Part shown: piece by piece, positions 15,036 through 58,735 of the stretch
Position numbering within the stretch: the first letter of the stretch is position 1
How the letters are laid out: each line of letters begins with the position of its first letter
NCBI GenBank assembly: GCA_964563615.1
Contig: CAZLWF010000001.1
Coordinates: 8,206-72,205 of the forward strand
Reading direction: 5' to 3'
DNA: 64,000 bases
DNA from: an uncultured Candidatus Saccharibacteria bacterium
GTDB lineage: Bacteria; Patescibacteriota; Minisyncoccia; Phycocordibacterales; UBA9973
The notes under the pieces: generated by a model
Database searches by the model: none
The model's input: only the letters and a program-made list of their open reading frames with translations
What the model was told of the DNA's origin: nothing
Position numbers and translations under genes: made by a program

Positions 15036-15266
15036 CTAAGCTGCAATAGGCTGGTCTGATTCAGGAGGATGACGCAAGCTCGCATTTCTTTGGGCAGTGA
15101 CTTTGGCATACTCCTTATCATATGCAGCATCAATAATAGCCTGCACTTCATCGAGCATTGAAGGCGTCACTGCACGCGACGTCAATAATGCAATAGCCTT
15201 TGCTTTGTCACCTTCTGCCAAATCAGGGCTCGCTTTTATCTCATTAATGTAATCATCGAATGTCAT
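15036..15266 (-). CDS. 76-aa hypothetical protein (second gene of the cassette inserted in the spc operon)
   Basis: The sequence is MTFDDYINEIKASPDLAEGDKAKAIALLTSRAVTPSMLDEVQAIIDAAYDKEYAKV... The ATG at 15266 lies 4 nt after the upstream ORF's stop. Confidence 0.45.
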   Translation of the reverse strand: MTFDDYINEIKASPDLAEGDKAKAIALLTSRAVTPSMLDEVQAIIDAAYDKEYAKVTAQRNASLRHPPESDQPIAA

Positions 15267-15270
15267 AATA

Positions 15271-15435
15271 TTACTCGCGAGACAACAATGAAACATCTTG
15301 GCGAAGCTTATAGAGACGCTCGAGTGGAGCGTAAGATTCTGGGGAGATTTCACCGTTTGCAAGCCACGCTTCTACCTCAGTTTGCGCCGAATGTACGTCA
15401 ATTGTATCTTTCTTTTCGAAACTAAATTTTTCCAT
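15271..15435 (-). CDS. 54-aa hypothetical protein (first gene of the inserted cassette)
   Basis: The sequence is MEKFSFEKKDTIDVHSAQTEVEAWLANGEISPESYAPLERLYKLRQDVSLLSRE. The ATG at 15435 lies 6 nt after a TACAAT box. Confidence 0.45.
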   Translation of the reverse strand: MEKFSFEKKDTIDVHSAQTEVEAWLANGEISPESYAPLERLYKLRQDVSLLSRE

Positions 15436-19174: not shown

Positions 19175-20545
19175 TTAAGCAGTTACTGTTTCTTCTTTTT
19201 CCACCGGCTGTGTCAAATCATTTTCTGCACTTACAATTTCACTACCATTAGTATTTGCAAGCGATTCCTGCTGTGAGGAATCAGATAGAGTTATCTGTCC
19301 GGAAGTAGACTCCTCAATTCCATTACCGCCATTTTTTTTCACCTTCCTGCGTACTGATTTATTGTTTTCAGGTTTTGTCATTTTAGTACTGCCGGACGTT
19401 TCGGCTACAGATTTTTCTATGTCGATAAATTCAGAAAAGTCTTTCTTTCTCAAAATACTGAGATTTTTTGCCACGTCATAGGCAGTGGGTTCATCACCTT
19501 TTTTTATTAATTCAATTGAATTTAACAAGCACGGGTAGAATTCCACTTTCAGATCTTCAACACTGTCTACTGAAAGCAGTTTGCGACTTAAAACGCTGAC
19601 CGCAGAATCAACAAGTGTTTTTACTTTCTTTATTGATTCCTCTGTCTCCTGTTCATTTGTCGGATGTTCAGCGCGCAATCTGCCAAGTTCTTCTATGGTA
19701 GCATTAATAGAGTTAGTAATTTCCTTTATTCCTTGGCATGAAATTACTTTCACGCGGTTCCCAAGGGCCAGCCTCACCTGATCCATGCAATTATAGGGAT
19801 ATGTATTCCTTAATTTCCTTTCCATGATTTCAATCTCAGGATAGGTAAAAATTCCCTCCAAAGCATTTTCCAAAAAGCCTAGTGCAGTGTTTTGAACATC
19901 TATAGCTTTAGCATCATACCCGGGAGACATCTGCGGCAAAACAAATCCTTCAAATGTATCCATGATGATTTTAAAGCCATTCTCATTCAACCCAGAGAAA
20001 AATTCCGGCAATAACGCTTCATACATTTTTGAATACATTCCATTAGCTCTCTTCTTATGGTCTTCATCAGAGAATTTTATCTGCGGAATTTTCTTATATG
20101 CTGTATTCACAGAATAAAGATCATTCGCATCTTGCGGTAAAATAGCACTGACGGGCAGCAACTCTTGCTCAGGTGCAACATAAACAAAATTTGCATCTGT
20201 AGTTTCGTCTACTGACTCTTTTACTGACTCTTTTTTATTTTCATCTTCAGGTAGAGTCACAGGAAGTTCTTCTTTTAATGTTTTTTCTTTTGAAGCACTA
20301 ACTGGATGCACTCTGGGATCATTAGTGGCCACAATAACCGCTTTCCCGTTTTCAAATTTTGATCTGTTCGTATTATCCTCGATTGGATCCTTCAGGCCAA
20401 TTGTTTTATCAGGTTTAGTGTTTCTAAATTTGGCAAAAATCTTTTTGCGATTGTAAATTACGATCCCTAAAAGAAGCAATCCTCCGAGTATCCATTTCCC
20501 GAATGGTATCTCCAATAGATTAGTGAAAATGTTCAAGTACAGCAT
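19175..20545 (-). CDS. Hypothetical single-pass membrane protein (456 aa) inserted in the S10 operon
   Basis: An N-terminal TM segment ([14 protein letters not shown]) is followed by an acidic linker and a helical region. I recognise no motif. Confidence 0.6.
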
Positions 20546-20610
20546 AGCTTATTTGTTTTGTTTTTGGTTTTAAATGTTCAATTTGTCGACACTATACCAT
20601 AACTACAGAA

Positions 20611-20635
20611 AAATGCAAGGATTTCTCTTGCATTT
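20611..20635 (-). terminator. Rho-independent terminator after dgkA
   Basis: AAATGCAAG...CTTGCATTT is followed on the minus strand by a TTTTT run. Confidence 0.6.
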
Positions 20636-20670
20636 GCGTATATCTAAAAAAGCCCAAACTATTAGTCTTT

Positions 20671-21066
20671 TTATTTAAAACACCAGAGTATTTTAGGGAG
20701 AAATATGATAAGGCCGATGAGAAGTGCAGCGAGCGAGGTGATGAGCACAGCGCCAGCAGCTATATCTTTGGTGTCACGGGCTTTGGGGTTAAATTCTGGA
20801 CTCGTCAGGTTCATATCGATCTCTAATGCTGTGTTAAAGGCTTCAGCGACAAAGACGATACTGACAGCTAGGATTATAAACAACCATTCGATAGACGAGA
20901 TAGAGAAAAACACACCAAGTATTACGACAGCAATAAGTGCCACCATATGCAACCAAGCATTGTGTTCATTTTTTATAAAAATCAGTAATCCTCGACACGC
21001 ATGCCGCATACTTCGAATACGCCCAGAGATAGTAAAAGCTTCTTTATCTTTTTCGTATGATTCCAT
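20671..21066 (-). CDS. dgkA: Diacylglycerol/undecaprenol kinase family membrane protein
   Basis: It has the prokaryotic DAGK motifs EAFNTALEIDMNL and KDIAAGAVLI, and three TM helices. Confidence 0.8.
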   Translation of the reverse strand: MESYEKDKEAFTISGRIRSMRHACRGLLIFIKNEHNAWLHMVALIAVVILGVFFSISSIEWLFIILAVSIVFVAEAFNTALEIDMNLTSPEFNPKARDTKDIAAGAVLITSLAALLIGLIIFLPKILWCFK

Positions 21067-24056: not shown

Positions 24057-25247
24057 TTACTTGATGATCTTCGTTACAACTCCGGCGCCAACTGTCTTGC
24101 CACCTTCACGGATTGCAAAGCGTGTCTGATCTTCGAGGGCAACTGGGGTAACCAATTTAACCACGAGCTTGATCGTATCACCTGGCATAACCATTTCAGT
24201 ACCTTCTGGAAGCGTAACATCACCAGTCACGTCAGTTGTTCGGATGTAGAATTGTGGTTTGTAACCTGCGAAAAATGGTGTGTGACGACCGCCTTCTTCC
24301 TTCTTCAAGATATAGACTTCACATTCGAAGTTATCATGAGGTGTTACTGATCCTGGCTTTGCGAGAACTTGTCCGCGAGTGATTTCTTCTTTCTTTGTTC
24401 CACGGAGAAGTATACCTGCATTGTCTCCAGCCATACCTTCATTTAACTGTTTGTTGAACATTTCGATACCAGTAACGGTTGTTTTAAGTGTTGGTTTGAT
24501 ACCGACGATTTCGACGTCTTCACCAACCTTAACGATTCCGCGTTCGATTTTACCAGTAACCACAGTACCTCGGCCTTCGATAGAAAAGATATCTTCGATT
24601 GGCATAAGGAAAGGTTTTGTTACATCACGTTCTGGAACTGGAATATATGTATCGAGAGCAGTAACGAGTTCCATAACTTTTTGTGCCCATGGATCATCCA
24701 TAGATGTTGACTCTAGGGCCTTAAGACCTGAGCCACGGATAATTGGACAATCTTTATCAAAGCCTTGTTTTGCAAGAATTTCTCGGATTTCCTCTTCGAC
24801 GAGATCAACCAAGTCATTATCATCAACCATATCTACTTTGTTTAAGAAGACGATGATTTTTGGAACACCAACTTGCTTAGCAAGAAGCACGTGTTCACGA
24901 GTTTGTGGCATCGCGCCGTCAGTAGCAGCAACAACGAGGATAGCACCATCCATCTGAGCTGCACCGGTAATCATGTTTTTGATGTAGTCAGCGTGCCCAG
25001 GAGCGTCAATATGCGCATAGTGACGTGAATCTGTTGCGTATTCATTGTGAGAGATGTTAATCGTGATACCACGCGCCTTTTCTTCAGGTGCGTTATCGAT
25101 ATCGCCAACTCCCTTCATTTTAACCTCTTTACCAGCCATCTGTAACACATGGAGGATAGCTGCTGTTAGAGTTGTTTTACCATGGTCAACGTGACCTATG
25201 GTGCCCACATTGATGTGTGGCTTGTCTCGCTTAAATTGTTCTGCCAT
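24057..25247 (-). CDS. tuf: Elongation factor Tu
   Basis: [18 protein letters not shown] and NKVD G-motifs are present. The protein is 396 aa. Confidence 0.97.
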
Positions 25248-25401
25248 AGAAATAAAAATTACTAGTAATAAATAAAAAGACTAAATAAAAACGGCGCAAA
25301 ATTGCGATTGCATCTAATCCTAGCAAATCCAAAATATTTGTCAATAAGTCCTTTACCAGGAAGCTTCTTACATCCGTAATTTTTATAAAACAGATTAAAT
25401 C

Positions 25402-25429
25402 TTGCTATAAACGCATATTGTGGTAAAGT
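25402..25429 (+). promoter_or_regulatory. Putative promoter TTGCTA-16-TAAAGT (TG-extended)
   Basis: The hexamers are read directly from the sequence upstream of the phosphoribosyltransferase gene. Confidence 0.3.
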
Positions 25430-25462
25430 TTAAAAAATTTCAAAAAATACAAACCAGACCTT

Positions 25463-26248
25463 ATGTCACTAGAAAAACCGATTATGCAGATCGTTAACGA
25501 TCAGAAAAATGACCCGATTAGCATCATGCACGCAATCAATGGGTTCTATGAATGTCCCAAGAGCCCTGATGGCAAACGATTAGGTCCATTAGTCACGTAT
25601 GCGGGTAAATACCCCCTTCCCGATCAAACAGAAAAAGCATATGTTGGCGACATTTACATAAACTTCGCCAAGGCAGAAGAACATCCAACATTGGTACATT
25701 ACTTTGCCACACAGCTAAAGCGCGAGATTAGCCCGACATTACTCGAAAAAATAACCACATTGGTTGGCCCTCAAATGGGCGGTATTGCACTGGCACAGAT
25801 GCTTGCTCTGGTATGCACAAAAAGGTATGCATGCGCTGAAAAGAAGGTGAGAAAGGCTGGGTCCGAAAAGGAGCGCGAAGAAACAAATCTGGCTTTTGCA
25901 CGGCATTCAATTCGAAAGGGTGATGTAACAGTTATAGTCGAAGATGTATTGAATAATTTTAGCACCACTGAAAAAACCATTGCTGAAATTGAAAAAAATG
26001 GGGGTACAGTTGTCGCCATCGTTGGTGCATTTAATAGATCTCCATCAGTAAAGACAGAATTCAAGCATGGTGAACAAACTATCCCTGTATATTCTTTATG
26101 GCAAAAGCCATTTAAAGAATATACGCAAGAAGATCCTGTAGTTTCTGCAGACGTCAAAGAAGGAAATATTGTAACCCAGACAAAAGATGAATGGCCACGA
26201 CTCATGCAGGCAATGCACAATGCTCACAATGCTAAAGTGCTGGTATAA
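25463..26248 (+). CDS. Type I phosphoribosyltransferase, orotate PRTase-like
   Basis: LVGPQMGGIALA and the PRPP-loop-like VTVIVEDVLNNFSTT parallel PyrE (LFGPAYKGIPIA, VMLVDDVITAGTA). The N-terminal part is atypical. Confidence 0.6.
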   Translation: MSLEKPIMQIVNDQKNDPISIMHAINGFYECPKSPDGKRLGPLVTYAGKYPLPDQTEKAYVGDIYINFAKAEEHPTLVHYFATQLKREISPTLLEKITTLVGPQMGGIALAQMLALVCTKRYACAEKKVRKAGSEKEREETNLAFARHSIRKGDVTVIVEDVLNNFSTTEKTIAEIEKNGGTVVAIVGAFNRSPSVKTEFKHGEQTIPVYSLWQKPFKEYTQEDPVVSADVKEGNIVTQTKDEWPRLMQAMHNAHNAKVLV

Positions 26249-26251
26249 AAT

Positions 26252-26283
26252 AATCCCCCAAAGTAATTCACTTGGGGGATTTT
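26252..26283. terminator. Bidirectional terminator between convergent PRTase and pyrF
   Basis: The sequence is AATCCCCCAaAGTaattcACTTGGGGGATTtt. Confidence 0.65.
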
Positions 26284-26299
26284 AATTTCTTGATGTCTA

Positions 26300-27073
26300 T
26301 CATTCAGTATTCATCTCGTTTAATGCTTGAGCAATTTCTTCAGTAATGAGTTCAATTGCTTTGAGAGAATCACCTTGGATATAGTCGTGATCTTTAGGTG
26401 GTTGACTGATAGCTCTTCCGATCACTAAATAGTCAGCACCGGCCTTGATCGCTTCGTAGGGTGTCATAACTCTCTGTTGGTCATTTTTTTGCATCCATTC
26501 AGGCTGAATACCAGGAGTCACTTTGATCAACGAACGTGTTTCTTCATCCGCCATAAGCACAGGTAGTTCTTTCGCTGAAGATACAACACCATGTGCACCG
26601 TTTGCCTTACCCTTTCGAGCAAACTGCAATACTTTATTTTCTGGGGTGTCACCAAACATTTCCATGCACTCCTCAGGGCCAATTGAAGTAAGTACTGTTA
26701 CAACAAGAACAGTACAACCTACACTTTCACATGCTTTTACTGCAGCTTTAATTGCTTCACTACCACTCGTGGCATGAATATTAAACATTCCCACTCCACG
26801 TCTTGAAAGAGGTTTTGTTGCACCAGTAATTGTATGAGGAATGTCATTAAATTTTCCATCATAGAACACATTAGTATCCTCCTTTTCTGTTAGATCAAGC
26901 ATAATAGGACCACCAAAAGCTGTTTGAGTTTCCAAGCCAATCTTTATACCTCCGACATAGGGGCCTAAATCATTAATCGTGTTTTTAGCTTTTTTAAGAT
27001 CATCCACATCGAGTGCAAAAATGATTTTCTTTCTGGCAGCATCTAACTGCTCTGGGCTAAATTTTGATTCCAT
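26300..27073 (-). CDS. pyrF: Orotidine 5'-phosphate decarboxylase
   Basis: The motifs IFALDVDD, KFNDIPHT, TPGIQ and VIGRAI are present. Confidence 0.85.
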   Translation of the reverse strand: MESKFSPEQLDAARKKIIFALDVDDLKKAKNTINDLGPYVGGIKIGLETQTAFGGPIMLDLTEKEDTNVFYDGKFNDIPHTITGATKPLSRRGVGMFNIHATSGSEAIKAAVKACESVGCTVLVVTVLTSIGPEECMEMFGDTPENKVLQFARKGKANGAHGVVSSAKELPVLMADEETRSLIKVTPGIQPEWMQKNDQQRVMTPYEAIKAGADYLVIGRAISQPPKDHDYIQGDSLKAIELITEEIAQALNEMNTE

Positions 27074-27175
27074 TGGAATTGGTTTTACTATGAAGAATTT
27101 TTAACTCAGTCTAATCAAATAAGTCTTTTTGTCAAATAAAAAATACCCCGAGGTTTTCGAGGCATTTTGTTTCAA

Positions 27176-27898
27176 TTATTTTTGTTCAGCTACATTCCAT
27201 ATTTCTTTGGCAAGAGCTGCAGGCTTTTGAGCATCAACTTCCCACTTGATATGCATCACTGGTCGACGACCTTCAGAATCATCTTTCATGTTTTCCCGCA
27301 TTTTGGGCGTATCAATGAGTTTGGGTTCTATTAAGCGATACCTAAACGTATCAGTTGGCTTACTCTGTTTCTGTAATTCTAAATTTCTTGCAGAAACAGC
27401 ACGCATTGAGAATATATATCCCCATTCGGGCCAGGTAATTAAATCCAGCAACGGAAACTTTGCAGCCCAAGACGACACATCTATGATATTCACTTTCTGT
27501 CCGCAATAGAGCGGTTCGAAATATCTCATGAGCCGAACTTTTGATGTATAGTTTTGCTCCATCAAATCTTCTATTGCCGCAAGCCTGTTCTCGTCGACAG
27601 TTGGCTTCCCATATTCATAATCCCAACGAAAGAGTCCAGCACCATTGATAAGTACATCAACCTTAGGATACTTTTGATATATATCCTTGAGTGTTTTTTC
27701 AACATGGGACTCATCAGAAAGATCAAGTGACACTGTTTCTATGGCGTCTTGATATTTATCTTTAAGCGCTAACAATTTATTTTGATTTCGTCCAAACGCT
27801 ACTATGAAATATCCTCGGGAAATGCCTTCTGCGACCACTTCCCATCCGATATCTCCAGTAGCGCCAGTGATCAGAGCAATTCCTTTAAATTTTTTCAT
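27176..27898 (-). CDS. SDR-family NAD(P)-binding protein with atypical catalytic region
   Basis: MKKFKGIALITGATGDIGWEV is a TGxxGxxG Rossmann motif. The start is uncertain (27898 or 27910). I saw no clear YxxxK motif. Confidence 0.6.
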   Translation of the reverse strand: MKKFKGIALITGATGDIGWEVVAEGISRGYFIVAFGRNQNKLLALKDKYQDAIETVSLDLSDESHVEKTLKDIYQKYPKVDVLINGAGLFRWDYEYGKPTVDENRLAAIEDLMEQNYTSKVRLMRYFEPLYCGQKVNIIDVSSWAAKFPLLDLITWPEWGYIFSMRAVSARNLELQKQSKPTDTFRYRLIEPKLIDTPKMRENMKDDSEGRRPVMHIKWEVDAQKPAALAKEIWNVAEQK

Positions 27899-27942
27899 AT
27901 CGTTTTCCATTTGGTTCAGTGTACAGATTTTCCATAAAAAAG

Positions 27943-27968
27943 AAATACCCCCGAAAGAGGGGGTATTT
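27943..27968 (-). terminator. Rho-independent terminator
   Basis: AAATACCCCCgaaagaGGGGGTATTT is followed on the minus strand by a T-run. Confidence 0.7.
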
Positions 27969-27974
27969 GTGTAA

Positions 27975-28400
27975 TCAGAGCAATACTTTTTGTTTCTCAT
28001 AAAGAATAGCTTTTACTTTTTCCATCATAACAAGCAAATCACCTGTGTATTCTTGAGCATTATTGTTTGTATGCGGATGACTAAGTTTGCAACGTATACT
28101 TTCAATGTAGATATCTTTCTTTGAATCTACTGAGAAAATTTCGCTCATTGCTGTTGAAAGTTCCAATGACCCAAACCCCGGAAGACAATCTCCCAATGAA
28201 AATACTTTGATCAAGGCACTTTTTAAAATTTCTTCTTCCGATCTTTTTTCTTCTTGCGCTAATTCAATCGTTGTGCAAGCAATCAAGATAAGATCTTCTG
28301 TATCTTGAGGTACACGCTTGATTTCACCATTGAGAAAGCGACAGAACATTTTGGATGCAGTATACGCTTTATCGTATCTGGATTGTTCATTAGTTTTCAT
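27975..28400 (-). CDS. Hypothetical helical protein, paralog C of a tandem triplet
   Basis: The sequence begins MKTNEQSRYDKAYTASKMFCRFLNGEIKRVPQDTEDLILIACTTIELAQEE. This resembles the upstream paralog, which has TADKVQYIARMLRDFIIKNGKPLYKDQKAIILQALKFVETEDQE. An alternative start lies at 28457. Confidence 0.5.
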   Translation of the reverse strand: MKTNEQSRYDKAYTASKMFCRFLNGEIKRVPQDTEDLILIACTTIELAQEEKRSEEEILKSALIKVFSLGDCLPGFGSLELSTAMSEIFSVDSKKDIYIESIRCKLSHPHTNNNAQEYTGDLLVMMEKVKAILYEKQKVLL

Positions 28401-28472
28401 AGTTTTTCTTTTTATTTTGGAACGAAGTGTAGCAGAAGCTTTTGTGTACTGTAGCATATCGCCCTTTTTTTT

Positions 28473-28502
28473 AAATAAAAATGCACAGATTACTCTGTGC
28501 AT
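28473..28502 (-). terminator. Rho-independent terminator overlapping the stop of paralog B
   Basis: ATGCACAGattactCTGTGCAT is followed on the minus strand by TTTTATTT. Confidence 0.6.
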
Positions 28503-28891
28503 TACTTTGTGATTTGCATTTGTTTATACAGCTCCACATACGTTTTCTTGAGGACCTCAAAAAACCGATCTTTATCAGTATTCGAAAGCGATCTGCTATT
28601 CAATTTAGCCTCCACATACTCTGCAAATAATTTACGACTATTCACCTCTGGCAAAAATTCAATCATCCATTCAGCCATTTCTTTTGCACCAGTTTTATTT
28701 ACAACATTTTTAATGGTTTCTTGATCTTCAGTTTCAACAAATTTCAAAGCTTGGAGAATTATCGCTTTCTGATCTTTATATAACGGCTTTCCATTTTTAA
28801 TAATGAAATCACGAAGCATTCGAGCAATATATTGCACTTTATCTGCTGTTTGAAAGGCAGTTGATGTATCATTTTCTTTCATGTATCCCAT
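28502..28891 (-). CDS. Hypothetical helical protein, paralog B
   Basis: The sequence begins MGYMKENDTSTAFQTADKVQYIARMLRDF... The ATG lies 4 nt after the stop of paralog A. Confidence 0.5.
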   Translation of the reverse strand: MGYMKENDTSTAFQTADKVQYIARMLRDFIIKNGKPLYKDQKAIILQALKFVETEDQETIKNVVNKTGAKEMAEWMIEFLPEVNSRKLFAEYVEAKLNSRSLSNTDKDRFFEVLKKTYVELYKQMQITK

Positions 28892-28895
28892 CTTT

Positions 28896-29300
28896 TTATT
28901 TTTTGAGTTTTCGTTTTTCTTCATCCGCCGCATCCCGCATTTGCTGACTCCATGAGAGAAGCACACTGGCTTTGAAAGTTTTAGATTCACATATCTTCCT
29001 CAATTCATCCACGATTGAATCAAGCGAATCTTTTGGAGTTTGAGACGCAATCAAAAAATAAGTTTCATTGGTGCCAATATAATCAGGATCACCTTTGATG
29101 CTCAGTAGGAAAGATTGTTTCGCCACCTCTACGTTATTTTCGGTAGGTTTAGATCTCATTAAATTTACTACAGAACTAAGTTTCTTATAGTTTGTCTTTG
29201 ATAATTTTTTACTCTCACCTTTTATTAGTCTACGCAGTGCCTTAAATAGATTGAGTGCTGCTACATCTGCCTCTTTGTTTGCTTTTGTCTTTATTGGCAT
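28896..29300 (-). CDS. Hypothetical helical protein, paralog A (most divergent)
   Basis: The sequence begins MPIKTKANKEADVAALNLFKALRRLIKGESKKL... The start is the ATG at 29300, downstream of the predicted -10 box. Confidence 0.5.
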   Translation of the reverse strand: MPIKTKANKEADVAALNLFKALRRLIKGESKKLSKTNYKKLSSVVNLMRSKPTENNVEVAKQSFLLSIKGDPDYIGTNETYFLIASQTPKDSLDSIVDELRKICESKTFKASVLLSWSQQMRDAADEEKRKLKK

Positions 29301-29318
29301 GTTAAATAATTTTCTTTT

Positions 29319-29346
29319 ATTATAACACAAAAATTTTATTTTGCAA
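29319..29346 (-). promoter_or_regulatory. Promoter TTGCAA-16-TATAAT (TG-extended) for paralogs A-B
   Basis: The -35 box is at 29346-29341 and the -10 box at 29324-29319. Confidence 0.45.
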
Positions 29347-29446
29347 TAAAAAACAACCCAACTGAGTTCTTTACGTAGACAACATTATTTTGTTCATCAA
29401 GGAGCATGCGAGCTTTATTCTAAAGACATGTGCAACATCAATGTGA

Positions 29447-29475
29447 TTGACCGCTGGTATATGCCGCTATACAAT
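29447..29475 (+). promoter_or_regulatory. Promoter TTGACC-17-TACAAT giving a leaderless mRNA
   Basis: The hexamers are read directly from the sequence. The ATG at 29482 is 6 nt after the -10 box. Confidence 0.45.
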
Positions 29476-29481
29476 ATATAC

Positions 29482-29661
29482 ATGGACAAAAGAGAAATTT
29501 TTAATTACGAAAAAGGTAAATTTACCAAAGGCAAACCACTCACATCAGAAGCCTTAGGTGAGATGTTGGCCAAAGATTTTATGTCTCCAGAAAAACGAAA
29601 GGAACTCGAGGAACAAGGCGTATTACCTAAAAAAGACGCAAAAGAAAACCCACCAAACTAA
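29482..29661 (+). CDS. 59-aa hypothetical protein
   Basis: The sequence is MDKREIFNYEKGKFTKGKPLTSEALGEMLAKDFMSPEKRKELEEQGVLPKKDAKENPPN. The track's longer start precedes the predicted promoter. Confidence 0.45.
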   Translation: MDKREIFNYEKGKFTKGKPLTSEALGEMLAKDFMSPEKRKELEEQGVLPKKDAKENPPN

Positions 29662-29674
29662 TTGGTGGGTTTTG
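29647..29674 (+). terminator. Rho-independent terminator
   Basis: The sequence is CCCACCAAactaaTTGGTGGGtttt. Confidence 0.6.
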
Positions 29675-29692
29675 CCATTTTAAATGGCAAAT

Positions 29693-30433
29693 TTATTTTA
29701 CAGGGGGGCGACCATTAAAAGTCATATTACCAAGATCAACAACATCACCCGGATTGACTTCAACAGTAACGGGGATGTCTCCAAGCCTGGGCTCAAGCGC
29801 AAGTGCCTGTACAGGAGTAATGACATTATCATCTCTCCATTGTTTTCCCTTATGTAGCCGGAGACCCCATTTATCTGCTATCCAGACGGAAGTCTTATAA
29901 TCTACATAAGTATTAAGACCGTGATTCTTCTCAATCGTAAAAACAGGTTTATAAGTACCAATCGTCTGTACATTACGATCACCTACAATACTGAAAGTGC
30001 CGTTGAAACACTCGACAAAAATCATAAGTGAATCCCTAAAACATGCTCCTCCTTTGACGACTGCATATAACTGGTCGGCAAATGGAAGATCATAGGTATT
30101 CCCATCCCCAGATTTAATTTCGGAGGCATCCCCAGAACCAAATTTATAGGTGATGGATCCAATGTTGCATGTGTAGCCTGACCTCTGTAGAAAAGCAACC
30201 AACTGAGAATTAAGCCTCGGCGCGAATTTATCAACCTCCTCTTTTCTTTCTGTCGGTGACATTGATTTCAATTCATCAATGAAACTTCGTTTCCACTCGA
30301 GGTCATTGGTGGACACAGGCTGGATACCACGGACGGCATCAAGTTCGGTCTTGCTACATGAGGCAGCAAAAAAAATAATTGCACCAATGGCAGCTAGCGC
30401 CAAGATGATAAAAGGAAGTCTTTTATTTTTCAT
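29693..30433 (-). CDS. Putative lipoprotein (246 aa)
   Basis: The signal peptide has a lipobox (IIFFAASC|SK). I recognise no domain in the mature part. Confidence 0.6.
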   Translation of the reverse strand: MKNKRLPFIILALAAIGAIIFFAASCSKTELDAVRGIQPVSTNDLEWKRSFIDELKSMSPTERKEEVDKFAPRLNSQLVAFLQRSGYTCNIGSITYKFGSGDASEIKSGDGNTYDLPFADQLYAVVKGGACFRDSLMIFVECFNGTFSIVGDRNVQTIGTYKPVFTIEKNHGLNTYVDYKTSVWIADKWGLRLHKGKQWRDDNVITPVQALALEPRLGDIPVTVEVNPGDVVDLGNMTFNGRPPVK

Positions 30434-30451
30434 TGTTTATGAGTTTTGCCT

Positions 30452-30480
30452 AGATTATCACAAAATATCATAAATGTCAA
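30452..30480 (-). promoter_or_regulatory. Promoter TTGACA-17-TAATCT for the lipoprotein gene
   Basis: The hexamers are the reverse complement of tgtcaa (30475-30480) and agatta (30452-30457). Confidence 0.5.
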
Positions 30481-30481
30481 T

Positions 30482-30517
30482 AAACAAAAATCTCCCCTGT
30501 TTGGGGAGATTTTTGTT
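30482..30517 (-). terminator. Rho-independent terminator after fusA
   Basis: The sequence is AAACAAAAATCTCCCCtgttGGGGAGATTTTTGTTT. Confidence 0.75.
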
Positions 30518-30527
30518 TATGTAAATT

Positions 30528-32678
30528 TTATTTCCTTGCTGCAATGATCGTCTCAGCCACGTTTTGCGGCACGATATCATACCGAATAAATTCCATCGTA
30601 AAGCCGGCGCGACCTTCGGTCATTGAGCGGAGGTTGGTCATGTAGCCGAACATTTCAGACAGTGGCACGATCGCGCGAACAACTTTATTCATACCTCGAT
30701 CTTCCATGCCTTCGATAAGACCCCGCTTGGCAGAGAGTGATCCCGTTACATCACCCATGAATTTCTCAGGTGTGACGACTTCGACATTCATCATAGGCTC
30801 TAGTATTACGGGCTTGGCAGATTTCGCAGCATCTTGAATAGCCATAGACGCGGCGATCTTGAATGCCATTTCGTTGGAGTCAACTTCATGGAAACTACCA
30901 TCCCAGAGATCAACAGAGACATCTACCATCTTAAAGCCAGCAAGAATTCCCCGATCAAGTCCTTCACGGAAACCTTTTTCAACTGGTGGAATATATTCCT
31001 GTGGAATCGCGCCACCTTTGATATTGTTGATGAATTCGAAATGCGGTTCACGCTTGGTGTTTTTTGGTAAGTCTTCGATATCTTCTTTAGTGAGTGTCAT
31101 ATCCATAGGCTTGATCTTGATCTTGACGTGGCCATAGTTACCGCGACCACCAGACTGCTTGATGTACTTACCTTCAGCTGATGCTTCTGAGGTAATCGTT
31201 TCTCGGTAGGCAACTTGCGGCTTGCCAACATTGGTCTCCACAGCAAACTCACGTTTCATACGATCAACAATGATTTCAAGATGTAGTTCTCCCATACCAG
31301 CAATAATCGTTTCGCCTGTTTCTTGATCAGTGGATACACGGAATGTCGGATCTTCTTGAGCAAGACGGTTAAGTGCCATACCCATTTTCTCTTGGTCAGC
31401 TTTGGTCTTTGGCTCTACACGAAGTGAGATAACTGGCTCAGGGAAGACGATACGGTTAAGCTCAACAGGCTTTTCTTGATCACAGAGTGTGTCTGAGGTA
31501 ATCGTATCTTTGAGCCCAACAGCTGCTGCAATTTCTCCGGCGTAGACTTTCTTTACTTCTTCTCGATCGTTGGCATGCATACGGAGAATTCGGCCAATAC
31601 GCTCTTTATTGCGAGTACGTGGGTTATAGACATATGAGCCAGCTTCCAGAGTACCTGAGTACACGCGGAAGAAAATAATCTGTCCGACGAATGGATCAGT
31701 AGCAACTTTAAATGCGAGCGCTGCAAATGGCTCACTATCAGAAGCCTTACGCTCAGTGACTTCATCATTGTCAGGATTGATGCCGGGAATCGGTGGAATA
31801 TCGGTTGGTGCTGGGAGATAGTCAACAACAGCATCGAGAACGAGCTGAACACCTTTGTTCTTAAGCGCACTTCCAGCAAAAACTGGGAATACATTGTTAG
31901 CAATCACGCCTTTGCGAAGTAATTTCTTAAGCGTATCAAAATCAGGAATTTTACCTTCGAGATATTCGTTCATGACTGCATCATCTTGCTCGACGATTTT
32001 CTCGATAAGCTCACTGTGGTATTTCTCCGCATCAGCTTTGTATTCTTCAGGAATATCTTTTTCGATAACTTTATTACCCATCTCACCTTCGAAGTAGTAA
32101 GCCTTCATACGAAGGAGGTCAATCACGCCTTCATGTTTCTCCTCAAGTCCTATTGGGATTTGTGCGCGAACAGCTTTCTTGGAAAGTCGATCGAGAATTG
32201 TTGCGTAGGAATGTTCAAATGATGCACCAGTTCGATCGAGCTTGTTGATGAAACAGATTCGAGGGACATTTGCTTCATCGGCGTAGCGCCAGTTGGTTTC
32301 TGACTGTGGCTCAACGCCAGCAACACCATCGAACACAACGACAGCTCCATCGAGTACACGAAGTGAGCGCTTTACTTCAACTGTAAAGTCGATATGCCCT
32401 GGGGTATCAATAATATTGAAGCGATGCTTTTTATTTTTGTCAGTCAATGCATAGGTCGGCGTCCAGAAACAAGTCACTGCAGCAGACGTGATCGTGATAC
32501 CGCGCTCGCGCTCTTGTTCCATCCAGTCAGTTGTCGTCTCACCATCATGCACCTCGCCGATCTTGTGTGACACACCGGTATAGTAAAGGACACGCTCAGT
32601 CGTCGTCGTCTTGCCCGCATCAATGTGGGCGATAATACCAAAATTTCTTACTTTCTCTAGCGGATAATCTCGTTCCAT
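30528..32678 (-). CDS. fusA: Elongation factor G
   Basis: [25 protein letters not shown] and NKLD motifs are present. The protein is 716 aa. Confidence 0.97.
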
Positions 32679-32731: not shown

Positions 32732-32760
32732 ACTATACGGTATACGATAAGTTTATGCAA
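32732..32760 (-). promoter_or_regulatory. Promoter TTGCAT-17-TATAGT upstream of fusA
   Basis: The hexamers are the reverse complement of atgcaa (32755-32760) and actata (32732-32737). Confidence 0.5.
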
Positions 32761-32794
32761 ATAACAAAAGCTCCCATTTGGGAGCTTTTGTTAT
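32761..32794 (-). terminator. Rho-independent terminator after rpsG
   Basis: The sequence is ATAACAAAAGCTCCCatttGGGAGCTTTTGTTAT. Confidence 0.75.
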
Positions 32795-32810
32795 TTGAGA
32801 TTATTTACAA

Positions 32811-53664: not shown

Positions 53665-55422
53665 CTATTCCGACACGACTCGAAGCACTTCCTCTGTTGT
53701 GGTTAACCCCGATACTGCCATATATAATCCATCTTCAAGCATCGTCATCATTCCCTCTTTTTTAGCCTGATCTGAGATAACGTCTTCTGAAGCACCCTTT
53801 AGTATGAGCTCCTTGATACTTGTCGTCACTTTTAATACTTCATGAATACCAAGTCGACCACTATAACCTGATTCCGATTCTTCTGAAGGTACAGCTTTAT
53901 AGAACGGTATCGTCTCCCAGGTCGCATCTTGTGGCACAATATTCTCAGTCTTGATCATAGTAAGCATCCGATCCAAATCTATAATTTTAGCTAATGCAGC
54001 TATTTCAGTTGGATTTAAAAAATACTTTTCTTTCGTATTGGTTAATTTTCTCACAAGACGTTGGCCGATAATCGTCTTTATAGTTGAGACCAAGAGAAAT
54101 GATTCAGCGCCCATGTCTATCATACGAGGAATAGCACCCGCGGCTGAATTCGTATGGATTGTCGAGAGCACCAAGTGACCAGTCAACGCAGCATTAATAG
54201 CAAGTGATGCCGTCTCCGTATCTCGGATCTCACCAACCATGATAATATCTGGGTCTTGTCGCAAGAGCGTGCGAAGTCCGTTAGCAAACGTAAGCCCGAT
54301 TTCTGATTTGACCTGAGTTTGGTTGATTCGCTGCATTTGATATTCGATCGGATCTTCGACAGTGGAAATATTAACGTCAGGTGTATTTAGAATATCGAGC
54401 ACAGTATAGAGTGTTGTGGTTTTACCTGAACCAGTCGGTCCAGTCGCCAAAATCATACCCGTTTTTTGCTTCATACCTTCATGAATGCGCTCCATCGCTT
54501 CTCCATGGAAGCCCAAACCTTCCAGAGTAAAACCTTTGGCATTTTCCTTCAATATTCTGATAACTGTTTTCTCGCCATAATAGGTAGGTAATGTTGAGAC
54601 ACGAAACGATACCTGATCACCAGCTTCAGTCGTGATTTTGAAGCGTCCGTCTTGTGGCAACCGTTTCTCGTCGAGTTTTAGATTCGACAGCACTTTAATA
54701 CGCGCTGTAATACCAGCTGCTGCATCTTTGGGCAGTACCATCGCATCATGGAGTATGCCGTCGATACGATAGCGAACAAGCAATTCATTTTCCTCAGGCT
54801 CAATATGGATATCAGATGTATTTTGGAGGATTGCATGGGATATAAGTGTATCGACAATCTTAACTACTGGCAGATCATCAGCCATGGCTTTGAGTTCTTT
54901 ACCAGAAAGTCCTGTTTCACCATTTTCTTCGGCGATCATCTTAAGTGACACAGATTCTTTTTTGATGATGTCATCAAAATCAGCCTTGAGACTTTTTTTG
55001 TACTGCGACAGTGCATGTTTGAGTGACTCAGTATCAGTCAAACGCGGCGAAATCTTAAGCTCAACTTTTTTCTTAATGAAGTCGATCACCGAGAGGTCTT
55101 CAATATCGAGCATCGCAACTTCGAGTTCATCAGCACGCTTGCGATACGCGATAATATTGTGATTGCGAGCAATAGGTTCAGGAATAAGTGAAAGTATTTC
55201 AAACGGAATTTTCTCTCCAAGCAGTGAAATAAACGGTATGCCTAATATATAGGCTTGCATTCGTTTGAGATCAGAATCGGTAATCTTACCAGCTGACAAG
55301 AGTACATCGCCGATCGATTGCTCTTTCTCTTTGGCTTCTTTTATTGCTGCTGTTAAATCCGCTTTCGAAACTAATCCCGCTTCTGCAATAAAAGTTTTTA
55401 ATTGTTCTTCTTTGATTTGCAT
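53665..55422 (-). CDS. pilB: Type IV pilus assembly ATPase PilB (GspE family)
   Basis: Walker A GPTGSGKTTT, Asp box and His box (TGHLVLSTIHTN) motifs are present. Confidence 0.93.
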   Translation of the reverse strand: MQIKEEQLKTFIAEAGLVSKADLTAAIKEAKEKEQSIGDVLLSAGKITDSDLKRMQAYILGIPFISLLGEKIPFEILSLIPEPIARNHNIIAYRKRADELEVAMLDIEDLSVIDFIKKKVELKISPRLTDTESLKHALSQYKKSLKADFDDIIKKESVSLKMIAEENGETGLSGKELKAMADDLPVVKIVDTLISHAILQNTSDIHIEPEENELLVRYRIDGILHDAMVLPKDAAAGITARIKVLSNLKLDEKRLPQDGRFKITTEAGDQVSFRVSTLPTYYGEKTVIRILKENAKGFTLEGLGFHGEAMERIHEGMKQKTGMILATGPTGSGKTTTLYTVLDILNTPDVNISTVEDPIEYQMQRINQTQVKSEIGLTFANGLRTLLRQDPDIIMVGEIRDTETASLAINAALTGHLVLSTIHTNSAAGAIPRMIDMGAESFLLVSTIKTIIGQRLVRKLTNTKEKYFLNPTEIAALAKIIDLDRMLTMIKTENIVPQDATWETIPFYKAVPSEESESGYSGRLGIHEVLKVTTSIKELILKGASEDVISDQAKKEGMMTMLEDGLYMAVSGLTTTEEVLRVVSE

Positions 55423-55470
55423 AAGAAATATACATGTTTATTATAGCAGAGAAGAAATAATTATTGGTAT

Positions 55471-55507
55471 AAAAAAACAAAATCGCCACAGGCGATTTTG
55501 TTTTTTA
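55471..55507 (-). terminator. Rho-independent terminator upstream of pilB
   Basis: The sequence is AAAAAAACAAAATCGCCacaGGCGATTTTGTTTTTTT. Confidence 0.75.
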
Positions 55508-55520
55508 TCTTAGGTTAGTT

Positions 55521-56801
55521 CTACCACTCAAATCGAACAGCACCACTTCCTCCATTTTGTGCTTGACCACCAGGATTTGCATTAGCTCCAATACCACCTG
55601 CACCGAGAGAGTATGTGTAGGCTCCTGAACTCCAGACTGATGTTGTTGACTGTGCACCACCAGCTCCTCCTTTGACACCAGTATTATAGGTACATCCTGC
55701 TGCACCACCTCCACCATAAACTATAGTCGTAGGACTTCCACAGTTTTGATTACTATTTTGGGTACCTAGATTAAATGCTGGGGCAGCGCCACTTGAACCA
55801 GTACCAGCAACACCGCTTTGTGGACCAAGTCCTGCTACAGTACTTGCACTTGATGGGTTAAAGGTTGCCCCGCCGCCACCGAGAGCTGTTAGAATAACCG
55901 AGCCTTTGGTAACTGTTGTTTGTGCACCATTAGTACCATTAGTACCATCATAGTCTCCGGTGACGCCACCATAGGTGACTCCGCCTCCGCCTCCGCCAAC
56001 TGCTTTGACGGTGAATGCAGCACCACTATTAAATTCAGTACTTGGAGGAGTAAATGATGAACCTGAAACAAACGTCTTGAGACCATTTGCTGTATAGGTA
56101 GCTGTATCAGTAAATGTACTTGCTCCTTGTGTACAAGTAAGTGAGAAAGTTGTTACGCCAAATTTCTCTATTGTCACTGTAGTATTTCCACTTGAGTTTA
56201 TAACAGATGCGCTCGGCCATCCTGTTGCATTACTTGCAGGACTCAATGTTTGACCTGCAATACTACAGCTAACACCGATTGGTACTGTCCATGATAGTGT
56301 AACTGGTCGAGATATAGCAGTATTTTCAGAGACTGTAAATTGACTTTCAGACAATGTAAGATCAATTCCTGTTGGAGCAGATACTGCACATGGAATAATT
56401 TTACCCGAAGATCGTTCAATACAAAGATGGTCTATATTACTGCTCCCTGATACTGCATATTTCTCAAAATATATATCCCCACCTTGCCCATATGCTGGTG
56501 ATTGTCCAGTATCTGGATTAAAAACTGGACCAAAAAAAACTCTATCCGCAAACGAAGCTGACCTCGCTGCATTGAATGTTCCAACAGCTATTCCACCGCA
56601 AACACCTGTTGGGCAAATACCCGTTGGTATTGTTTTTGCTTGGTTTGTTGAACTTTCATTAAATGGCGCCGCGACGTTATTACCTGGTGCATCAGCGGTT
56701 GGACCGACGAAGGCTGATACGTAACTCACGCCGACTGCAATGATGAGTCCAAGCAATATCACTTTTGCACTTTGCAATATATTATTTTTTTCTTGTTTCA
56801 T
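55521..56801 (-). CDS. Surface protein with N-terminal anchor/signal and C-terminal glycine-rich domain
   Basis: After the N-terminal helix comes NVAAPFNESSTNQAK. The C-terminal 170 aa contain GGGGGG, GGGG and GGAGG runs and end in GGSGAVRFEW, a pattern seen in glycine-rich fibre-like domains. Confidence 0.6.
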   Translation of the reverse strand: MKQEKNNILQSAKVILLGLIIAVGVSYVSAFVGPTADAPGNNVAAPFNESSTNQAKTIPTGICPTGVCGGIAVGTFNAARSASFADRVFFGPVFNPDTGQSPAYGQGGDIYFEKYAVSGSSNIDHLCIERSSGKIIPCAVSAPTGIDLTLSESQFTVSENTAISRPVTLSWTVPIGVSCSIAGQTLSPASNATGWPSASVINSSGNTTVTIEKFGVTTFSLTCTQGASTFTDTATYTANGLKTFVSGSSFTPPSTEFNSGAAFTVKAVGGGGGGVTYGGVTGDYDGTNGTNGAQTTVTKGSVILTALGGGGATFNPSSASTVAGLGPQSGVAGTGSSGAAPAFNLGTQNSNQNCGSPTTIVYGGGGAAGCTYNTGVKGGAGGAQSTTSVWSSGAYTYSLGAGGIGANANPGGQAQNGGSGAVRFEW

Positions 56802-56839
56802 ATTATCTAGAATACTAAATTATTGGTAAGTAAACAATG

Positions 56840-58255
56840 CTAATAATTTCTCGGCTCATTATATATCGGCACAATGCCTCCGCCTCCGCCAGTTGTTGGA
56901 TTTTGTCCATATTTACACGGCAGTGGTCCTCCATAGTTAGTTGCGGTTGGGTCTTGGCAAGTTGCCGTATATTTTGAAACAATGACAGTATTCGATGTTA
57001 TCCATGTACCATTGTTTGCTAAACATTTAACTTGAAAGTTTGTTGGATTTGTTGGCACACTAATACCTATTTTACTTATCGCATAATTATTTGCTGAGGT
57101 TAGTGTTCCGAGGTTTGTATTCCAGTCAGTACCGCCGCCCATACCAACGCAACTTGTCGTTGCGCTATAGTCAGGGTTCGAAGAGTCAAATCCAAGATCG
57201 ATAAGGTAAGTTGGTGGGAATGCTGTACCACTTGTTGCTGTTGATCCATTAATATGGAGTGACAATGTAGGCGTGATTGTTGCAGATGTGTTTACTGTTG
57301 CTGTAGCAACTGTTGCCTTGGTATTTGCTGGAGTTTTGTAGCAAGATAAAGTGTACTTCGTACCACTTGCAGGAACGAGCATATCAGAAATTGATTTAAA
57401 TATTGTAGGATTGGCCGGTGGTGGAGGAGGCAAATTAGCAGAACCAGCGGAGAAATCAAGCGTTGTCCATGCAGGCACTACCTGAGTAGATGTAGCAGCA
57501 CAGTGATCAAATACAGTACCATTTGGTGACCACCAATTGAGGTATACTTTATTTCCTGTCGGAATAGTGATTACCTTTGGAAGCCCTTGGAGATTAGTAG
57601 CGGACGTAGCTGTAGGTATAACTGCAAGACCATCAGTTGACTGTGCCTCAGTAACAACATTTATAAATTTTATCCACCCGGTCACTTCAGATCCCCAGGC
57701 AAATCCAGTGAGTGCCCCAGTTCCTGGATCATATGAAATACCATACGCAAACTCAGATAATTGTAACCCAACTGAGTCTGGATCTTGATCGTTGACAGCA
57801 TTTAAACTAATCCACCCATCCCAACCAGGAGGACCACTACCTGCCAATACTCTTGCGAAACCTACTAATTTGTTTGTTGTAAAGTTAAGCCGTGCATTGC
57901 ATTCTCCATTCGTTCCTGAAGGACATCCAGCATCAAACTGTACCCAACCATAATTGTCACTCCAAGCATTTCCTGTCATATAACCAGTTGTCATATCGAC
58001 ATTAACGCCGTACTTTGTGGAAATTGTTTGCATGCCATCATCAACATGTGAACAACCACCAGAACTTGGATTTGTACAATTAAACGAAAGCCAGCCCATA
58101 CCTCCTGCAGTACCATCTGGCATTTGTGCTTCTCCCCAAGCCCAGCCGGTAACATTATCGCCTGAACCAGCAAATGCTTTTGATGAATAGAGAAAAGTAC
58201 TCACAGCAAACAGTACTATAAGTAGATATATACCGAAAATAAAATGTCTCTTCAT
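56840..58255 (-). CDS. Secreted protein with four GWAW...GW(I/L)xF repeats
   Basis: A signal peptide is present. The four repeats are TGWAWGEAQ..GMGWLSFN, GNAWSDNYGWVQFD, GFARVLAG..GWDGWISLN and GFAWGSEVTGWIKF. Confidence 0.6.
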   Translation of the reverse strand: MKRHFIFGIYLLIVLFAVSTFLYSSKAFAGSGDNVTGWAWGEAQMPDGTAGGMGWLSFNCTNPSSGGCSHVDDGMQTISTKYGVNVDMTTGYMTGNAWSDNYGWVQFDAGCPSGTNGECNARLNFTTNKLVGFARVLAGSGPPGWDGWISLNAVNDQDPDSVGLQLSEFAYGISYDPGTGALTGFAWGSEVTGWIKFINVVTEAQSTDGLAVIPTATSATNLQGLPKVITIPTGNKVYLNWWSPNGTVFDHCAATSTQVVPAWTTLDFSAGSANLPPPPPANPTIFKSISDMLVPASGTKYTLSCYKTPANTKATVATATVNTSATITPTLSLHINGSTATSGTAFPPTYLIDLGFDSSNPDYSATTSCVGMGGGTDWNTNLGTLTSANNYAISKIGISVPTNPTNFQVKCLANNGTWITSNTVIVSKYTATCQDPTATNYGGPLPCKYGQNPTTGGGGGIVPIYNEPRNY

Positions 58256-58261
58256 ATTATT

Positions 58262-58582: not shown

Positions 58583-58735
58583 AGAAAAATAAGTTATTAA
58601 AGAAAGTATACCATGTCCTTATAAAAAGGGCTCAAATTGGATATGGGTAAGGCTGTGGATAAAGCCCTTTACATTTGACAAAATATATGATTTAATGTAG
58701 AAAAGAATCATTCTTCATTTACAAAAATAAAAAAA

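Follow-up and report, generated by a model that had tools for sequence, protein, structure and literature searches.

The genes of the elongation factors EF-G and EF-Tu, fusA and tuf, have 5,280 bp between them (positions 25248-30527) in the stretch of DNA analysed here, 64,000 nucleotides of contig CAZLWF010000001.1 (assembly GCA_964563615.1; hereafter the window). This separation is a real break of the str cluster and of a kind that is common in the lineage. In Escherichia coli and most bacteria the two genes are adjacent in the str operon rpsL-rpsG-fusA-tufA. The window belongs to a genome of the Patescibacteria, of Nomurabacteria/Paceibacteria type, whose EF-G is 90% identical to its best match among the species representatives listed. 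We regard the interval as probably a permissive slot within the cluster of ribosomal-protein and elongation-factor genes that contains a module remodelled by recombination, and not as a mobile island. The actual novelty is a localized replacement of cassettes inside the interval, which lies beyond what an initial annotation, made from these letters alone, could see.

Gene content and organization of the interval

Along the minus strand rpsL, rpsG and fusA are followed by the interval and then by tuf, rpsJ, rplC, rplD, rplW and rplB. The initial annotation had recognized the separation correctly but counted nine genes in between; eight open reading frames (ORFs) were found, and the public gene calls on identical contigs are likewise eight. 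All the products it had named, i.e. a phosphoribosyltransferase (PRTase), PyrF, a short-chain dehydrogenase (SDR), three small proteins, a small plus-strand ORF and a lipoprotein-like protein, are present according to the ORFs and domain searches. Its statement that most of the genes have no known function also holds, with five of the eight (the lipoprotein gene, helA, helB, helC and the 59-aa ORF) matching no described family in Pfam, NCBIfam, PADLOC or PHROGs. From fusA to tuf the genes are:

30528-32678, minus strand: fusA (EF-G), ORF of 716 aa at the upstream edge of the interval; Pfam EF-G domains on identical contigs
29693-30433, minus strand: lipoprotein-like protein of 246 aa, with signal peptide and AASC lipobox
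29482-29661, plus strand: conserved small protein of 59 aa, predicted to be translated from a leaderless mRNA
28896-29300, minus strand: helC, 134 aa, called with the same length on public contigs
28502-28882, minus strand: helB, 126 aa, hypervariable, a small helical protein according to its AlphaFold2 (AF2) model
27975-28400, minus strand: helA, 141 aa from the start at 28400; longer starts up to 28502 are possible
27176-27910, minus strand: atypical SDR, 244 aa from MENDMKKF; adh_short match of 9.8e-22, motifs TGATGDIG and NGAG
26300-27073, minus strand: pyrF, orotidine-5'-phosphate decarboxylase; TIGR01740 145.8 bits versus 92.3, PF00215 4.9e-42
25463-26248, plus strand: divergent type-I PRTase, pyrE-like, 261 aa; PF00156 27.9 bits versus a cutoff of 26.3
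24057-25247, minus strand: tuf (EF-Tu), ORF of 396 aa at the downstream edge; rpsJ starts 28 bp after it

Inheritance and cassette replacement within the genus

With the window as the fourth, three further lineages were compared (L091/L099, L088/L089 and L093/L094), L099 being CP064958.1, the complete 808-kb genome of the sister organism "Candidatus Nomurabacteria bacterium". At EF-G these sister lineages match the window to about 99% at the protein level and 85-88% at the DNA level, and the interval shows the same architecture at the same place. Compared with CP064958.1 the ribosomal proteins, EF-Tu and EF-G are 96-100% identical (99.7% for the tuf product and 99.2% for the fusA product), and the products of neighbouring non-ribosomal genes 92-96% (diacylglycerol (DAG) kinase 95%, M50 peptidase 96%, lactamase_B 92%, superoxide dismutase 96%). 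Inside the interval two tiers can be distinguished. The PRTase (90%), PyrF (90%), the SDR (86%), the 59-aa protein (93%) and HelC (78%) are stable, whereas HelB (36%) and the lipoprotein (33%) are replaced, together with all of HelA except for its C-terminal 64 aa (70%); in L091/L099 the helA gene is a remnant of 67-75 aa. In DNA the same alternation appears as a series of blocks:

25173-28169: 86% identical to the sister; start of tuf, PRTase gene, pyrF, SDR gene and C-terminal part of helA
28170-28895, minus strand: replaced cassette V1, with helB and half of helA (N-terminal); DNA without similarity to L091/L099, between the blocks 27126-28169 (86%) and 28896-29391 (80%)
28896-29391: 80% identical to the sister; helC
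29392-29443: site of an insertion or deletion, where sister genomes hold an extra gene of 117 aa
29444-29696: 93% identical to the sister; 59-aa gene and terminator
29697-30356, minus strand: replaced cassette V3, exactly the mature lipoprotein; no DNA similarity to L091/L099 or L088
30357-30572: 93% identical to the sister; signal peptide, promoter, fusA terminator and the last 45 nt of fusA

The breakpoints around the lipoprotein are abrupt, the 92-93% identical blocks ending at the stop codon on one side and at codon ~26, which encodes the cysteine of the lipobox, on the other. The signal peptide of 27 aa is identical in the sister genome and the mature protein following it is 30-33% identical. 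At the same time the mature lipoprotein of the window has 39-57% identity to at least ten family members in other contexts, compared with 33% and 30% to the proteins in the same slot, and the mature lipoprotein of the sister genome falls in a different subfamily. Since the nearer kin are found elsewhere and the two same-slot proteins belong to different subfamilies, the lipoprotein was replaced and did not diverge in place.

The allele groupings of the single genes are in conflict with each other. HelB of L088 and L094 is 90% identical, yet the lipoproteins of these two are of different types. By its lipoprotein the window groups with L094, and L088 with L099; by HelC the window groups again with L094. 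HelB of the window is 36-39% identical to the same-slot protein in all sister lineages, HelC has 90%, 78% and 55% identity with a conserved C-terminus, and the 59-aa protein is 83-98% identical in the four lineages. The extra 117-aa gene lies between helC and the 59-aa gene in L091/L099 and L093/94 (at 3953-4306 in L091 and 893-1246 in L094) and is absent from the window and from L088. By these patterns, seen in four lineages, the lipoprotein and helB segments are hypervariable cassettes exchanged by recombination. Both metagenome scans for more variants of the interval found none, in a collection without samples carrying it.

Proteins of the variable module

The lipoprotein assignment is based on the signal peptide and the cysteine of the lipobox (MKNKRLPFIILALAAIGAIIFFAAS-C), and lipidation is thus predicted. 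S25 and C26 are invariant in an alignment of five sequences, three of which are sister copies with the same signal peptide, and most of the family members shown have a similar N-terminus. The family is uncharacterised and comprises secreted proteins of ~250 aa (172 representatives at 50% clustering, E <= 1e-3), with members elsewhere located in typical surroundings of Patescibacteria that are unrelated to fusA. In the AF2 model (predicted local distance difference test, pLDDT, of 76) two helices and a long antiparallel sheet are combined with an alpha/beta part at the C-terminus that is predicted with confidence; searches of PDB and BFVD gave no matching fold.

The three small proteins had been described as tandem helical paralogs. 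The word helical applies to HelB only, and there it comes from a low-confidence AF2 model with six helices (pLDDT 53) that was too poor for a fold search. As to paralogy, BLASTP among HelA, HelB and HelC gave E values of 38, 0.11 and 0.86. In profile comparisons with shallow alignments HelB and HelA match at E = 3e-3 with a probability of 4-5%, HelC matches nothing, and the best profile match, HelB against the 117-aa sister protein, is still weak (E = 2e-4, probability 23-40%). Paralogy of the three is therefore not shown by these comparisons. Among 5.8 billion clusters only three alleles of HelB are found. A weak PDB profile match (E = 0.19) raised the possibility that HelB is a decayed uS7; this reading was rejected because profile comparison of four small-protein families with 61 S7 sequences gave E >= 0.14.

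The 59-aa leaderless ORF, also predicted initially, gains support from two sides. Compared with a sister genome its 59 codons contain seven synonymous and one non-synonymous difference, while the 18 in-frame codons upstream contain none and three, respectively. A promoter-like site (29447-29475, plus strand; TTGACC, 17 nt, TACAAT) is invariant in the four-lineage alignment, and the ATG begins 6 nt past its -10 box. The protein is probably translated from a leaderless mRNA. Only two homologous clusters are present among the 5.8 billion.

Metabolic genes of the interval

The PRTase has pyrE models as its best named matches, both far below their cutoffs (TIGR01367 52.4 bits, cutoff 150.25; TIGR00336 41.3, cutoff 106.8). 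It is labelled orotate phosphoribosyltransferase (OPRTase) by IMG, is 24% identical to the canonical pyrE product of L003, and its best PDB matches are adenine PRTases (weak, E ~ 0.007). The context agrees with an OPRTase, as the gene stands next to pyrF in the genus and a canonical pyrE-pyrF pair occupies the same slot in L003. The assignment of pyrF is clear (PF00215 144.7 versus a cutoff of 27 over residues 16-224; NF001273 187.7, just below its cutoff of 193). Together the PRTase and PyrF would turn orotate into uridine monophosphate (UMP). PyrF of the window and PyrF from the same slot of L003 have no BLAST similarity, and therefore the window and L003 did not inherit one and the same pyr set.

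The SDR was correctly called atypical. It has the adh_short match and the N-terminal cofactor motif TGxxxGxG (as TGATGDIG) but lacks the catalytic lysine: in place of YxxxK the sequence reads VSS ... GYIFSMR with methionine instead of lysine. The tyrosine is 18 residues past the serine (usually ~13), and the Pfam match ends before the Y motif. The same altered motif (YVFSMR) is found in the SDR of CP064958.1.

Terminators, promoters and hairpins

Strong hairpins are located at or near all five positions for which intrinsic terminators had been predicted (26252, 27943, 28473, 29647 and 30482), and there is a sixth one after the SDR gene. In detail the predicted signals are:

30472-30528, no strand assigned: palindromic hairpin after the fusA stop codon, 18-pair stem, 26-nt arms with 88% complementarity; also scored at 30480-30520
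29645-29673, no strand assigned: bidirectional terminator hairpin of the lipoprotein gene and the 59-aa gene, 12-pair stem with A-run and T-run; conserved in four lineages
28480-28503, no strand assigned: hairpin between helB and helA, 10-pair stem, reported on both strands
27943-27968, minus strand: terminator hairpin after helA, 10 pairs followed by a T-run
27140-27168, minus strand: terminator hairpin after the SDR gene, 12 pairs followed by a T-run
26252-26281, no strand assigned: hairpin between the convergent PRTase gene and pyrF, 11 pairs
25317-25344, minus strand: promoter-like site upstream of tuf, TTGACA, 16 nt, TG-TAGGAT, a consensus match only

The first of these probably terminates fusA, and the promoter region of the lipoprotein gene comes next; it falls within a block of 216 bp (30357-30572) with 92-93% identity to sister genomes. 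Between 23.5 and 33.5 kb terminator-like sites are enriched (18 versus 7.8 +/- 2.5 in shuffles), while in the region from 34 to 54 kb they are not (19 versus 14.9 +/- 4.6) and only three strong hairpins occur. The initial observation of independent transcription units is therefore real, and such a layout is unusual for this genome. Only individual promoter-like sites, e.g. those upstream of tuf and of the 59-aa gene, are plausible. An Rfam scan of the interval revealed no structured RNA above the gathering score.

A further observation concerns fusA itself. It is flanked by two long palindromic hairpins of similar sequence, at 32758-32797 (AACAAAAGCTCCCA) and at 30472-30528 (AACAAAAATCTCCCC), and with hairpins on both sides it would therefore be a single-gene unit.

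The fusA-tuf junction across the lineage

Outside the genus the junction was compared in 80 relatives, which are among the matches listed and have 61-90% EF-G identity to the window. In none of these were the genes of the interval found near fusA. Nevertheless, their fusA and tuf genes are frequently apart. Among the 55 loci in which tuf was found, the distance has a median of 890 bp and is above 1 kb in 26; 16 further loci extend for more than 1.4 kb after fusA without tuf. A spacing of more than 1 kb is therefore present in no fewer than 42 of 71 informative loci. Gaps of this size also occur between rpsG and fusA (9 of 66 loci) and between rpsJ and rplC (10 of 48) and never at the other five junctions from rpsL to rplB. 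The contents of the gaps are nearly all singletons and functionally mixed:

L003, 5949-9964: pyrC-pyrD-pyrE-pyrF and a response regulator
L001, 12324-15945: Big_7 protein, purD and purN
two loci: HepT-like toxins, in one case with a nucleotidyltransferase (HepT/MNT)
one locus: IS200 transposase
several loci: large peptidoglycan (PG)-binding proteins
single loci: asparaginase, subtilase, ABC transporter and others

Genes of nucleotide synthesis thus recur in the slot, though not as one inherited set. More distant relatives whose gaps measure ~0.4-0.6 kb have a homologous small ORF of ~75-135 aa in the gap (L065 4570-4959, L067 9837-10247, L070 8062-8418, L071 12112-12339, L073 12189-12599 and L077 12107-12415). 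In the window itself the ribosomal cluster is broken a second time, between rplB and rpsS (19175-21066), by a DAG kinase gene (131 aa) and a gene for a protein of 456 aa. The latter has no Pfam match and is 53% identical in the sister genome, where its neighbours are 95-100% identical; it is a second fast-changing gene in the cluster. The DAG kinase gene also comes after rplB in L008 and L011.

The comparison modifies the initial designation of the interval as an accessory island. The word accessory is justified in part, as the gene set is absent from the 80 relatives listed and the site is variable. The word island is misleading in so far as the block is neither recent nor mobile, keeps the same layout in at least three sister lineages, is stable in the genus and carries in part ordinary metabolism.

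Displaced fusA ends and an associated hairpin in relatives

The least expected element of the analysis is a set of fusA-end copies with a hairpin. In seven relatives (six of the 80 and CP064958) the last ~14 codons of fusA occur a second time, with a stop and on the forward strand, 25-174 nt past the working stop codon, or 3,178 nt past it in L033. These stubs match 9-14 of 14 residues, compared with a background of 5-6 and never more than 7 on the reverse strand. They are located as follows:

L099: 15243-15340
L089: 290-420
L021: 12095-12370
L033: 12037-12137 and about 15260-15375
L020, L028, L046 and L069: just after fusA

Nine comparisons of a stub with the native end gave 60 synonymous and 17 non-synonymous codon differences, the latter clustered in the first four codons. 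As the differences are mostly synonymous, the stubs were once working gene ends that diverged under selection, and not decaying local duplications. The stub of CP064958.1 differs from the working fusA end of the window at 3 of 45 positions (93% identity); the genome's own working end differs at ~12 of 45 positions. L021 has a tandem array of stubs with a period of 114 nt. In L033 a 101-nt repeat of 98% identity stands on both sides of a 3.2-kb PG-binding gene, which is followed by a paralogous gene.

A hairpin is common to the short spacers; its GCCCCG...YGGGGT clamp is invariant, and its inner stem varies, with compensatory changes. This clamp hairpin sits between the fusA stop codon and the displaced end, and its copies are at:

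L021: 12162-12220 and 12276-12334
L028: 4515-4573 and, on the minus strand, 2269-2323
L089: 315-386
L099: 15243-15314

In L028 one copy lies 30 nt upstream of fusA. Rfam, applied to the stub-bearing loci, has no match to the clamp hairpin and finds only tRNA and rRNA. A covariance model searched over 1.47 Mb recovers the eight training copies and a weak match (E = 0.07) in L024 (19716-19784), directly after the stop codon of rpsJ and hence at another variable junction; in the window it has no hit. A further hit in L067 is inside a small ORF and probably spurious. No integrase was found next to any of the stubs.

The stubs point to recurrent recombination at the 3' end of fusA, which may be site-specific. 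A more far-reaching proposal is that the 3' end of fusA, and perhaps that of rpsJ, is the attachment site of an undescribed miniature element of Paceibacteria that replaces gene ends; we consider it doubtful at present, albeit conceivable. Its unit of ~114-127 nt would consist of the working last ~14 fusA codons with the stop codon, a short spacer and the clamp hairpin. Each insertion would push the resident fusA end downstream, and repeated insertion, accretion and capture of cargo would drive fusA and tuf apart across the lineage.

Proposed history of the slot

In this branch of the Patescibacteria fusA has a strong terminator hairpin of its own, and with a putative promoter of tuf, a consensus match only, inserted DNA would be harmless to expression of the two genes. 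Across the relatives the fusA-tuf junction, and less so rpsG/fusA and rpsJ/rplC, has been filled with different genes in each species. In the genus of the window the slot contains a constant framework of eight genes, divided into six or more units bounded by terminators. The PRTase/pyrF pair and the SDR-fold protein without catalytic lysine have been passed on vertically. The module of 2.5 kb, i.e. lipoprotein, 59-aa leaderless protein and three small proteins, has been remodelled by recombination via conserved homology arms. On one side the arms are the fusA end, the terminator, the promoter and the signal peptide, on the other side the 59-aa gene with its terminator, the 3' end of helC and the C-terminal half of helA. 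In this way the mature lipoprotein domain has been swapped for a member of another subfamily behind an unchanged signal peptide, with helB alleles shuffled independently of the lipoprotein alleles and a fourth small gene coming and going.

Alternative explanations

That the interval is an artefact of assembly or binning, joining unrelated DNA between fusA and tuf, might be suspected of a metagenome-assembled genome from an uncultured group. However, the window sequence recurs at 100% identity in seven or more independent assemblies drawn from several samples, and in independent assemblies such identical sequence runs across both junctions. This excludes an assembly artefact, and with the same layout in the complete sister genome this explanation is refuted and can be set aside. 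An ordinary housekeeping insertion, conserved throughout the lineage and with nothing variable in it, is very improbable. It would fit pyrF, the pyrE-like gene and the SDR as metabolic genes as well as the stability of the block in the genus, but absence from this position in 80 of the 80 relatives listed refutes it for the lineage as a whole. Furthermore, five of the eight genes are without a known family, and the lipoprotein and HelB are 33-39% identical between genomes with 99% identical EF-G.

Closest to the initial annotation is a recently acquired mobile genomic island, meaning an integrative element, or what is left of one, inserted at the 3' end of fusA. Such an island would explain the position at the end of a conserved gene and the absence from the 80 more distant relatives listed. 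Its composition might be cited too, the GC content of 0.379 being the lowest in the window and the tetranucleotide deviation (z = 1.9) the joint second highest, and so might the fusA-end duplications of relatives, typical of att sites, and one lipoprotein homologue elsewhere that adjoins a tyrosine recombinase. Yet the latter enzyme adjoins rpsO and looks like XerC/D. The initial remark that integrase, tRNA and flanking direct repeats are missing was confirmed: no integrase, recombinase or transposase domain was detected in the eight proteins (Pfam, NCBIfam, PHROGs, PADLOC), no tRNA gene in the whole window (ARAGORN), no flanking direct repeat in 23.5-33 kb and, over the 10 kb downstream, no further copy of the fusA end. 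Synteny of the block as a whole extends to the sister lineages, and the PRTase, PyrF and the SDR diverge roughly like their neighbours. Relatives with up to 90% EF-G identity lack the block and have other cargo; each of the four lineages at ~99% has it, and no empty site was seen among close relatives. Codon usage and the GC content at third codon positions (GC3) are within |z| <= 1.3 of the window's genes for every gene of the interval. Thus the k-mer and codon-usage comparison proposed at the outset yields ordinary values and no support for recent acquisition, and nothing suggests a compositionally foreign origin, in a test that is blind to donors from related genomes. A mobile island is in our opinion quite unlikely, and an origin from phages was likewise discarded, as neither the lipoprotein nor HelB had a relative in IMG/VR and no viral fold matched.

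A polymorphic effector/immunity or defence locus, with the lipoprotein as secreted effector or receptor and the small proteins as immunity or antitoxin cassettes, is unlikely as well. In its favour are the tandem arrangement of small, fast-changing proteins beside a hypervariable secreted protein, the shuffled alleles with one gene gained or lost, and the HepT/MNT toxin-antitoxin pairs in the same slot of other species. But the five genes concerned have no PADLOC, Pfam, NCBIfam or PHROG match, and the search for defence systems with PADLOC that had been recommended returned a single match of chance level (Cas7_IIId, E = 0.01, 12.8 bits), so that a defence system was rejected as a candidate. 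The lipoprotein has neither a toxin domain nor a fold match, its homologues elsewhere are without such arrays of small proteins, and the lipoprotein and helB alleles are unlinked, which is unexpected for a cognate pair.

The permissive slot with a recombining module therefore remains the explanation that we favour, and several points weigh against it. Its recombination picture is drawn from four lineages, of which the sisters are mostly known from short contigs, and the 80 relatives are those among the matches listed. The PRTase is a putative OPRTase by its context, with pyrE models far below cutoff and weak PDB matches to adenine PRTases, and neither pyrC nor pyrD (nor purD or purN) occurs within the window. 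Promoters, terminators and the leaderless start are predictions, and the initial claim that nearly every gene has its own promoter is not sustained, since promoter-like sites are not enriched (30 versus 24.8 +/- 4.9 in shuffles). We infer the surface exposure of the lipoprotein and also the driver of the variation, which is likely selection for diversity of an exposed envelope protein under host attachment or phage pressure.

Apart from the interval, the strongest compositional outlier of the window is the region 55001-60000 (tetranucleotide z = 3.4). A 426-aa ORF at 55521-56801 has the lowest GC3 (z = -2.3), and several of the ORFs at 55521-60043 open with hydrophobic N-termini resembling signal peptides.

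Relation to known systems

In the window the genes of the str and S10 operons have the same order and orientation as in E. coli and most bacteria, and rpsL-rpsG as well as tuf-rpsJ-rplC-rplD-rplW-rplB stay tight with gaps of 1-45 bp. In contrast with the str operon, fusA is isolated between two strong hairpins and followed by 5.3 kb of unrelated genes on both strands before tuf; in contrast with the S10 operon there is the second interruption between rplB and rpsS.

Streamlined free-living bacteria possess hypervariable regions or flexible genomic islands, e.g. the SAR11 region within the rRNA gene cluster. With these the interval shares a fixed slot in a conserved translation locus, a cargo that differs between close relatives, richness in envelope proteins, exchange by recombination through conserved flanks and the lack of mobility genes. 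It differs in that the slot is only 5 kb long, that part of it is stable metabolism and that replacement occurs at the level of a single protein module. Variable surface lipoproteins of mycoplasmas consist of a conserved 5' region with signal peptide and a variable mature part. Here too an identical promoter and signal peptide with lipobox precede a mature region that is unrelated, and the bacterium is presumably host-dependent and has a reduced genome. Unlike in mycoplasmas, there is one copy in the 64-kb window and no repeat-driven phase switch, and the variation is found between lineages.

Streptococcal integrative and conjugative, integrative mobilizable and cis-mobilizable elements (ICE/IME/CIME) target the 3' ends of conserved translation genes, bring a replacement gene end, accrete in tandem and leave remnants without integrase. 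The displaced fusA ends of the relatives, their one tandem array and the overwhelmingly synonymous differences are similar. The differences are the lack of an integrase beside the copies, units of 114-127 nt save for one case of 3.2 kb, and a window without a copy. The interval belongs with the hypervariable slots in conserved loci that are known from other streamlined bacteria. A search of the literature on fusA/tuf, synteny and pyrimidine salvage in Patescibacteria yielded nothing relevant.

Biological significance

The textbook adjacency of fusA and tuf fails in a large uncultured group, and this bears on checks of synteny or binning that use the cluster, in which three of the eight junctions from rpsL to rplB recurrently hold more than 1 kb of extra genes. 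The pyrE-like/pyrF pair, without visible genes of the upstream pathway, hints at salvage from orotate to UMP. The copies of the fusA end and the hairpin in relatives offer a testable explanation for the origin of such slots; elements that replace gene ends, if true, would explain how slots like that of the window arose. For the organism itself, the interval is a compact example of the replacement of a lipoprotein module behind a fixed promoter and signal peptide in a group thought to be host-dependent, and lipoproteins of this type are candidates for host attachment or phage recognition.

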